Shown here: positions 36,458-36,546 of the stretch, piece by piece
Layout: each line of letters begins with the position of its first letter
Numbering within the stretch: the stretch's first letter is position 1
Origin: a virus
Length of the DNA stretch: 36,691 bases
Reading direction: 5' to 3' (one strand)
Virus record (IMG/VR): IMGVR_UViG_3300045988_081277
Coordinates: 1 to 36,691 of that record
Made by a program: the position numbers and the translations under genes
Notes under the pieces: generated by a model
Database searches by the model: none
What the model was told of the DNA's origin: nothing
What the model saw: the letters and a program-made list of their open reading frames with translations, nothing else

Positions 36458-36485
36458 TTGACAAGTAATATATACGTGTTATGAT
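36458..36485 (+). promoter_or_regulatory. Strong early promoter (TTGACA, 16 nt, TGtTATGAT)
   Basis: It has a consensus -35 and an extended -10, and is preceded by a T-rich terminator-like tract. Confidence 0.7.
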
Positions 36486-36508
36486 AAAAGTGTAATCAAA
36501 AGCAAGGG

Positions 36509-36546
36509 GCTTCAGAAGAATGTTAAATCGACGAGGCTAAGGTTAC
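36509..36546 (+). repeat. Solitary CRISPR-repeat-like unit, copy B, in the leader of the early transcript
   Basis: The sequence is GCTTCAGAAGAATGTTAAATCGACGAGGCTAAGGTTAC. It starts about 17 nt after the predicted TSS. Its core matches copy A. Confidence 0.4.

Follow-up and report, generated by a model that had tools for sequence, protein, structure and literature searches.

How does a phage genome come to carry a lone CRISPR repeat directly behind its best promoter, and what might such a repeat do there? The question is raised by IMG/VR virus record IMGVR_UViG_3300045988_081277, a viral DNA of 36,691 nucleotides (nt) that is called here, in its whole length, the window. Two solitary repeat-like units are present in it, both on the + strand: copy B, at 36509..36544, close behind a promoter, and copy A, at 2401..2424. 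Both resemble the 5′ part of the repeat in the type II-A CRISPR system of Ligilactobacillus salivarius, and similar units recur in other phages that are matched by spacers of this species. The explanation that we favour, with moderate confidence, is that copies A and B are solitary type II-A repeat units that act as a guide-less RNA anti-CRISPR (Racr type), that is, as a decoy for Cas9 and for its partner, the trans-activating CRISPR RNA (tracrRNA).

Identity of the repeat-like units

The window holds exactly two occurrences of the sequence TTCAGARGAATGTTAAATC, each on the + strand, when 0.05 are expected. A search with GTTTCAGAAGAATGTTAAAT at up to three mismatches likewise returns exactly two occurrences, and none in 100 shuffles. 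These are copy B (GCTTCAGAAGAATGTTAAATCG) and copy A (GTTTCAGAGGAATGTTAAATCAAT), which are 2.6 kb apart; the second copy that the initial annotation had placed near 2401 is thus present, at 2401-2424. That annotation, made from the letters of the DNA only, had also described the motif as CRISPR-repeat-like, and the label proved apt. In a scan of one genome per species, the motif was found to be the first 21 nt of a 36-nt repeat in arrays with a 66-bp period; the phage units correspond to its positions 1-20/24. Such arrays are present in Ligilactobacillus aviarius, L. hohenheimensis, two further Ligilactobacillus, Pediococcus acidilactici and an L. salivarius-like contig, whose Cas9 is 88-92% identical to that of L. 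salivarius. In those loci the arrays adjoin the cas genes in the order cas9, cas1, cas2, csn2, array, with the tracrRNA gene placed between cas9 and cas1 in antisense orientation. Because the P. acidilactici tracrRNA located here equals the published single-guide sequence of P. acidilactici, the orientation of the repeat is fixed.

In type II-A systems, the 5′ ~22-24 nt of the repeat stay on the mature CRISPR RNA (crRNA) and pair with tracrRNA. The phage copies hold exactly this crRNA-retained 5′ part, and host terminal repeats likewise preserve that part alone. When four host repeats and six phage units are aligned, positions 1-20 are near-invariant and the 3′ parts diverge. Both copies match the L. 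salivarius terminal repeat at 19 of 20 positions (in copy B, this core is 36509-36528). Compared with the array repeat, copy A matches at 22 of 24 positions and copy B, a more degenerate unit, at about 28 of 36, with its 3′ half (CGACGAGGCTAAGGTT) agreeing at about 9 of 16 with the 3′ half of the repeat. At both gathering and permissive thresholds, Rfam recognizes the salivarius-1 RNA alone in this DNA (see below), with no CRISPR-DR or tracrRNA family.

Host and CRISPR targeting

At least 10 L. salivarius spacers match the window at 27-29 of 30 positions, and the flanks of the matches give an NGG protospacer-adjacent motif (PAM), together with variants in which the PAM is lost. For this reason, the host of the phage is, on the testimony of the spacers, L. 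salivarius, whose type II-A system targets this phage lineage. The host loci considered were eight L. salivarius II-A cas loci (L109-L113 and L146-L148). Three spacers match at 29 of 30 positions: L112_sp2 at 19657..19686 (+ strand), where the 3′ flank is CGA and NGG has been lost; L113_sp7 at 24428..24457 (- strand), with the flank TGG; and L146_sp1 at 11366..11395 (+ strand). Matches at 28 of 30 are found for L113_sp11 at 21777..21806 (+ strand; flank CAA, PAM lost) and for an L. salivarius spacer at 11988-12017, and several further spacers match at 26-27 of 30. Altered PAMs in the window are CGA, CAA and TAG (19657-19689, 21777-21809 and 32744-32772, respectively), and a close relative (L001) retains TGG at the third of these sites; they look like CRISPR escape mutations. 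Spacers of other Ligilactobacillus and Pediococcus species gave weak matches only.

The nearest relatives of the window proteins are Lactobacillus phage proteins, and nucleotide searches of GenBank phages, with the region as well as with the whole genome, returned no close relative. A Streptococcus phage, an idea suggested by gene order, was rejected, as the closest proteins come from Lactobacillus phages and the matching spacers from L. salivarius.

Predicted pairing with the host tracrRNA

The L. salivarius tracrRNA starts with GUAGGUUUUGACCUCAUUGAUUUAACAUUCUGAGUUGAAAUC. In the array repeat of this species, GUAUG stands opposite CAUUC of the tracrRNA, which leaves a U:U mismatch. Copies A and B, the host terminal repeat and the units of two other phages (L003 and L140, described below) have GAAUG at this place, which pairs perfectly with CAUUC. 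Duplex energies were predicted on isolated segments, taking the first 24 nt of each unit against the L. salivarius tracrRNA; in this setting the array repeat gives -18.2 kcal/mol, the host terminal repeat -20.1 kcal/mol, copy B -19.8 kcal/mol, the L003 unit -21.4 kcal/mol and copy A -22.3 kcal/mol, compared with -8.2 +/- 2.5 kcal/mol for random 24-mers of the window. Over a longer region, a 44-nt stretch of copy B reaches -32.7 kcal/mol, versus -34.9 kcal/mol for the full 36-nt array repeat. Complementarity to the host tracrRNA, which the initial annotation had named as a point to be checked, was therefore found in both copies. The phage handle is predicted to be tuned to the host tracrRNA, being better paired than the array repeat over the first 24 nt. 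As a separate observation, the L. salivarius loci encode tracrRNA on the strand opposite to the cas operon, and a cas9-cas1 read-through RNA would consequently bear a perfect tracrRNA complement.

Promoter, leader and insertion of copy B

Upstream of copy B, the replication module ends with a gene for RusA (35836-36249, + strand), after which a terminator-like hairpin is followed by a T-run (36385..36427, + strand; 14-pair stem, hairpin with T-run at 36385-36417). This hairpin would close the transcript of the replication module and insulate the promoter that follows about 40 nt later, in an intergenic gap. The promoter is of the sigma-70 type (TTGACA-16 nt-TGtTATGAT, 36458..36485, + strand) and matches the consensus at 11 of 12 positions, with an extended -10 TG in addition. 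The near-consensus character given to it by the initial annotation was borne out: no other site on either strand of the 36.7-kb genome reaches 11/12, which makes it the best sigma-70 match there, and three close relatives (L001, L144 and L145) have the same hexamers. Since AT-rich shuffles yield about 1.6 sites of at least 11/12 per genome, such a match is not proof of a promoter by itself. Transcription would start at about 36490-36492, so that copy B, for which a leader of about 17 nt had been described, indeed begins at 36509, 17-19 nt past the point at which transcription is predicted to start (TSS) and 23 nt past the end of the promoter.

The leader (GTGTAATCAAAAGCAAGG, 36490..36507, + strand) is identical in L001, L144 and L145. 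In these relatives it continues directly into the AGGA...ATG of an intact lipoprotein gene (MKKNIILSAVVC..LLAGCG). In the alignment, a window-specific segment of 61 nt (36508..36568, + strand), which carries copy B and a new GGAGG, stands in place of 20 nt of the three relatives (AGGACAAACAAATGAAAAAG) that comprise part of the Shine-Dalgarno (SD) sequence, the ATG and the first codons. A search for a donor of the 61-nt insert found none. What remains of the gene in the window (36599..36688, + strand) retains the lipobox LLAGCG and is truncated in comparison with the relatives, without a canonical start or N-region. Judged by this comparison of four genomes, copy B is a recent insertion.

Copy A and its flanks

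Copy A is located 17 nt past the stop codon of the open reading frame (ORF) at 2057-2383, which is the last gene of the transcription unit begun at 36490. It would be transcribed by read-through, as a 3′ untranslated part of this unit. The copy is unchanged in L001 and is orthologous to unit 2 of a tandem pair in L140. It is followed by a conserved non-coding block (2425..2700, + strand; fold z = -2.3) that is ~90% identical in L001 and L140. The block covers ~300 nt in L140 and, in the alignment, its 5′ boundary falls exactly at the repeat unit, although the upstream genes of L140 differ.

Two exact 10-bp direct repeats (TTGACCTTAG; 2392-2401 and 2424-2433, + strand) bracket copy A. These repeats resemble the 5′ end of the anti-repeat of the host tracrRNA (UUUUGACCUCA), and their pairing with the 3′ half of the host repeat is predicted at -11.2 and -9.5 kcal/mol; among random 16-mers, only 1.8% get as low as -9. 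The 3′ half of copy B is likewise complementary to them. This relation had already been noticed by the initial annotation, and it is exact: ACCTTAGC, which stands beside copy A, has its reverse complement in copy B as GCTAAGGT, with a predicted duplex of 13 bp and -17.8 kcal/mol. The pair of direct repeats could be a scar resembling a target-site duplication or a functional segment that binds pre-crRNA.

Recurrence in other L. salivarius phages

Similar units are found in other phage contigs, and L. salivarius spacers match these contigs as well (30/30 positions for L003, 29/30 for L119 and 27/27 for L140). The related phage L140 has two directly adjacent units at the site of copy A. In L003, a 127-kb phage contig, the unit is identical to the host terminal repeat GTTTCAGAAGAATGTTAAAT and forms part of a stand-alone small-RNA gene (fold z = -4.4), in which an extended -10 and a 5′ hairpin precede the unit and a terminator follows it; the sequence 5′ of the unit is buried in the hairpin. 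In L119 and L132, a 32-nt unit heads early genes, and that of L132 lies ~50 nt 5′ of a Tad2-like gene (6680-6925, 81 aa; Thoeris anti-defence 2, PF11195, E = 8e-10). Altogether, such units are present at four independent loci of L. salivarius phages, and every unit is sense to local transcription.

A further observation concerns L003. Directly 5′ of the small-RNA gene that holds its II-A unit, two other units, GTGTTCCCCAATTATTTGGGGGTGACCC at 2559-2586 and GTGTTCCCCACAATCGTGGGGTTAATAAG at 2609-2637, lie between a promoter-like site and a terminator at 2660-2681. These units, of the form GTGTTCCCC...GGGGGTGACCC, appear to resemble type I-E CRISPR repeats such as those of Lactobacillus. If this likeness holds, it suggests that L003 carries a multi-type RNA anti-CRISPR locus.

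The sequence upstream of the units as a possible guide

The layout of copy B had been likened to a mature type II crRNA, in which a short guide is followed by the repeat handle. The second half of this comparison holds, as the handle is the crRNA-retained part of the repeat, but the first does not. Because the leader is identical in three relatives that lack copy B, it is not a guide selected together with the unit; on the alignment, it is the ancestral 5′ untranslated region (UTR) of the lipoprotein gene and neither a guide nor a spacer. The 5′ sequences differ between units in every case, even between the orthologous copy A and L140 unit 2, and this variability fits a decoy rather than a guide.

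Possible targets were sought for the 20 nt 5′ of copy A, copy B and the L003, L140 and L119 units, requiring at least 10/12 PAM-proximal matches or a seed of at least 8 nt beside NGG, in promoters and elsewhere. No NGG-flanked site was found in the 24-kb L109 and L112 cas loci, and no anchored match of at least 9 nt to the 5′ sequences was present in the cas loci L109-L113. When the junction between the end of the leader and the start of the repeat (TTGACCTTAGTTTCAGA) was scanned for in IMG/VR and Joint Genome Institute (JGI) metagenomes, L001 and L059, of the same lineage, were recovered, and the remainder were chance matches. In the relatives, the leader is followed by AGG, which is one nt out of register with the putative guide of copy B (...AAGGG versus ...AAGG|AGG). 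As the register is off by one nt, the relatives are not targets, and the leader as a crRNA against sibling phages was ruled out by register and PAM. Thus, the initial suggestion of a guide against a competitor or the host finds no NGG-flanked target in the three relatives or in the host cas loci examined.

The host loci were also inspected for elements of comparable design, namely small CRISPR-Cas-associated RNAs (scaRNAs). None of the eight L. salivarius cas loci has a scaRNA-like element, and the only additional tracrRNA binder in them is the trivial antisense of the tracrRNA gene. Neither copy A nor copy B is followed by an anti-repeat or a tracrRNA tail; the units are unpaired in folds, and similarity to the tail is not above that of shuffles. 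In another species, at the end of the array of Candidatus L. excrementigallinarum (L006, 5208-5340), two degenerate units (ACTTCAGAAGGATATT... and GCTTCAGAAGGATGTT...) come after a 'spacer' that contains the promoter-like sequence TGTGCTATAAT; these array-end units may be a host scaRNA-type element.

Proposed mechanism and alternative explanations

The decoy for host Cas9 and tracrRNA that the initial annotation had offered as one option is the best-supported reading. According to this proposal, the promoter at 36458 would give an early or accessory RNA in which nt ~+18 to +53 mimic a CRISPR repeat, with copy A in the 3′ part of the same unit. The repeat-like segment would anneal to the anti-repeat of the host tracrRNA, and the duplex, probably cut by RNase III, would be taken up by Cas9. 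In this way, tracrRNA and Cas9 would be locked with the phage leader as a 'guide' that has no PAM-flanked target, and fewer Cas9:tracrRNA complexes would be left for the host crRNAs that target the phage.

Several observations weigh against a decoy. No convincing promoter was found for copy A itself, and no known anti-CRISPR (Acr) or anti-CRISPR-associated (Aca) family was detected beside copy A or copy B in the window. The pairing energies given above refer to isolated segments, and the change of U2 to C in copy B weakens the lower stem. Furthermore, copy B is present in one of four close genomes (the window, but not L001, L144 or L145) and came with the loss of the start codon of a gene, and may for these two reasons be a neutral, recent scar. 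As for precedents, a decoy made of the repeat alone is not known to inhibit Cas9. Those type II RNA inhibitors that have been validated mimic a complete single-guide RNA (sgRNA) (10.64898/2026.06.01.729453, 10.64898/2026.06.03.729762). The one viral scaRNA that was tested in vitro was active only once modified (10.64898/2026.06.01.729453).

The main competitor of the decoy, which we regard as unlikely, is a non-functional recombination scar, that is, a fragment of a host CRISPR array (its terminal repeat) or of the unit of another phage acquired through illegitimate or short-homology recombination, with copy B as a recent accident that killed the lipoprotein gene. The absence of copy B from L001, L144 and L145, whose gene is intact, would be expected in this case, as would the replacement of SD and ATG, the truncation of the remaining ORF and the lack of a recognizable donor; copy B is, moreover, closest to the host terminal repeat and to L140 unit 2. 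Nevertheless, an accident does not readily account for copy A, which is kept between diverged phages and at which the conserved block starts exactly, nor for four independent loci that are always in sense, with the tracrRNA-pairing handle alone conserved. Likewise, the L003 unit comes with a promoter and a terminator of its own, and copy B was inserted 18 nt past a strong TSS. Quite doubtful, when taken with all its parts, is a more elaborate version of the decoy itself: a distinct guide-less type II anti-CRISPR RNA, or 'tracrRNA sponge', tuned through GAAUG, in which the two UUGACCUUAG segments at copy A would imitate the tracrRNA anti-repeat at its 5′ end and could hold pre-crRNA repeats by their 3′ half, so that a single phage RNA would block both partners of crRNA maturation, and in which copy B would have been newly inserted at the cost of a superinfection-exclusion-type lipoprotein gene. 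A strict viral scaRNA, whose short 5′ guide would act with host tracrRNA to make Cas9 bind without cutting and silence the cas9 promoter or another promoter of host or phage, has only a small chance of being correct. This class has been predicted in L. salivarius prophages and IMG/VR contigs, and it has the same architecture, a short 5′ sequence and then a tracrRNA-pairing repeat-like handle. By contrast, there is no NGG-flanked match (L109, L112), no anchored match of at least 9 nt (L109-L113) and no scaRNA-like element (8 loci), the 5′ sequences vary, the copy B leader is an older 5′ UTR, and the L003 5′ sequence is held in a hairpin.

The remaining explanations are much less probable. A role at the level of DNA, where the units would offer homology for recombination with the host array (leading to integration, spacer deletion or transduction of the locus), is very improbable. 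The units do have 20-24 bp that are near-identical to every host array repeat, and the idea already exists in the literature on solitary repeat units; yet 20-24 bp is short for RecA-type recombination, and a role as RNA is favoured by the fact that the units are strictly in sense, by their setting among promoters and terminators and by a complementarity that is improved towards tracrRNA and not towards the array repeat. Slightly fainter is the prospect of a functional crRNA borne by the phage in the manner of a mini-array, with leader and handle guiding host Cas9 to cut competing related phages or host DNA. The 17-19-nt 5′ sequence and the handle together have the size of a mature crRNA, and relatives bear an identical leader followed by AGG. 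Nonetheless, with the register off by one, either the PAM is GGA or all positions are shifted; there is no upstream repeat, the leader is older than the unit, and no other NGG-flanked match was found in the L109 and L112 cas loci. Finally, the initial annotation had also considered an unrelated leader element shared with 2401..2423, and a binding site or leader element of a phage regulator with no CRISPR link could place one copy at each end of a single transcription unit, as seen here. This is scarcely credible in view of the identity of 20-24 nt to host CRISPR repeats, none being expected by chance, of the host link provided by spacers, and of the presence of the unit in L. salivarius phages (L003, L119/L132) that are unrelated, as are the loci.

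Relation to known RNA inhibitors and possible significance

As putative solitary RNA decoys, the units can be compared with several known systems, among them the Racrs. These are solitary repeat units just 3′ of promoters that act as RNA anti-CRISPRs against types I, V and VI (Camara-Wilpert et al. 2023, PMC10651486). The validated Racrs belong to single-RNA systems (I-C, I-E, I-F, V-A and VI-A) and bind Cas6, Cas7 or the effector directly, and no type II case was tested (PMC10651486). The window units share with Racrs a lone host-type repeat on a phage, with no cas gene or array and with a CRISPR system that targets the phage. As with Racrs, there is a predicted promoter within 250 bp upstream of copy B (23 nt). 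Beside the units of other phages lie a Tad2-like gene (L132) and type I-E-like units (L003), and beside the window copies no known Acr was detected. In contrast to the Racrs, the first partner here must be tracrRNA, and a decoy would therefore act by RNA-RNA pairing before Cas9 binding.

Viral scaRNAs consist of a guide and a repeat-like handle, are reported in L. salivarius phages and are proposed to sequester tracrRNA too (Feussner et al. 2026; 10.64898/2026.06.01.729453). The window units have a phage type II-A repeat-like handle and a predicted pairing with host tracrRNA in common with them. Unlike the viral scaRNAs, they have varying 5′ sequences, and the defining guide (at least 10-11 nt directly 5′ of the unit, equal to the host scaRNA guide or matching the cas9 promoter beside a PAM) was not found in the cas loci scanned. 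In the viral sgRNA (vsgRNA), or rAcrIIA1, repeat, anti-repeat and tracrRNA tail are fused in one RNA (10.64898/2026.06.01.729453, 10.64898/2026.06.03.729762). Such an RNA resembles the window units in being a phage RNA that competes for type II-A Cas9, a competition that would hold here by the proposal above, but the window copies have no anti-repeat, nexus or hairpin tail. The L. salivarius terminal repeat also has only its 5′ handle conserved and shares the GAATG variant with the phage units; it differs in that it closes an array and follows a genuine spacer, whereas the phage units are solitary and lie behind phage promoters. Lastly, the viral mini-CRISPR arrays of the archaeal viruses SPV1 and SPV2 are of the form repeat-spacer-repeat, with spacers against related viruses (PMC11656645). 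They too are host-type repeats on a virus, but no spacer with a usable target is present here, and the L140 units are directly adjacent. Overall, by sequence and context, the units are a candidate type II-A member of the Racr and viral-scaRNA kind.

RNA inhibition of Cas9 systems is described in preprints from 2026 only, as full sgRNA mimics and guide-bearing viral scaRNAs. If the decoy proposed here is real, titration of tracrRNA and Cas9 by a repeat alone would be the simplest possible Cas9 inhibitor, of ~24 nt, and the Racr strategy would reach dual-RNA systems. It would also explain how phages of L. salivarius, a probiotic bacterium of the gut, that of poultry included, withstand a CRISPR system by which they are visibly targeted. 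Nature has provided an experiment in this respect, as four near-identical phages with the same promoter differ in copy B, and the host loci provide spacers and an NGG PAM.

Other features of the genome

The window is a circularly closed contig, with nt 1-29 identical to nt 36663-36691, of a 36.7-kb siphophage-like genome in which the + strand holds every long ORF. Both the transcription unit starting at 36490 and its first intact gene, which encodes a Bro-N/KilAC antirepressor-like protein (1..825, + strand), span the contig junction; because the contig is circular, the start of the antirepressor ORF is placed at 36663. The neighbours of the two copies in the window are this antirepressor, a helix-turn-helix (HTH) protein and small ORFs without an assigned function. 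Among the 24 window ORFs outside the structural genes that were scanned against Pfam, no Cas families were found, and an integrase or CI-like repressor is absent from the window ORFs scanned. Four antirepressor-type genes are located within 26897-31480 and 1-825 (one Rha/ORF6C, one AntA/ORF6C and two Bro-N/KilAC). The window phage seems to be a virulent descendant of temperate ancestors.

About 350 nt 3′ of copy A and directly 5′ of the gene at 2872, there is a full-length match to the Rfam salivarius-1 RNA (RF03030) at 2776-2831 on the + strand (76.8 bits, E ~1e-15), a motif for which a literature search yielded no function. The accessory operon also contains a 125-nt repeat with 78% identity between its copies (1515-1639 and 1972-2096), and in the early region promoter and terminator modules are duplicated, at 26133-26190 and 29924-29981 and at 28417-28495 and 29856-29936.

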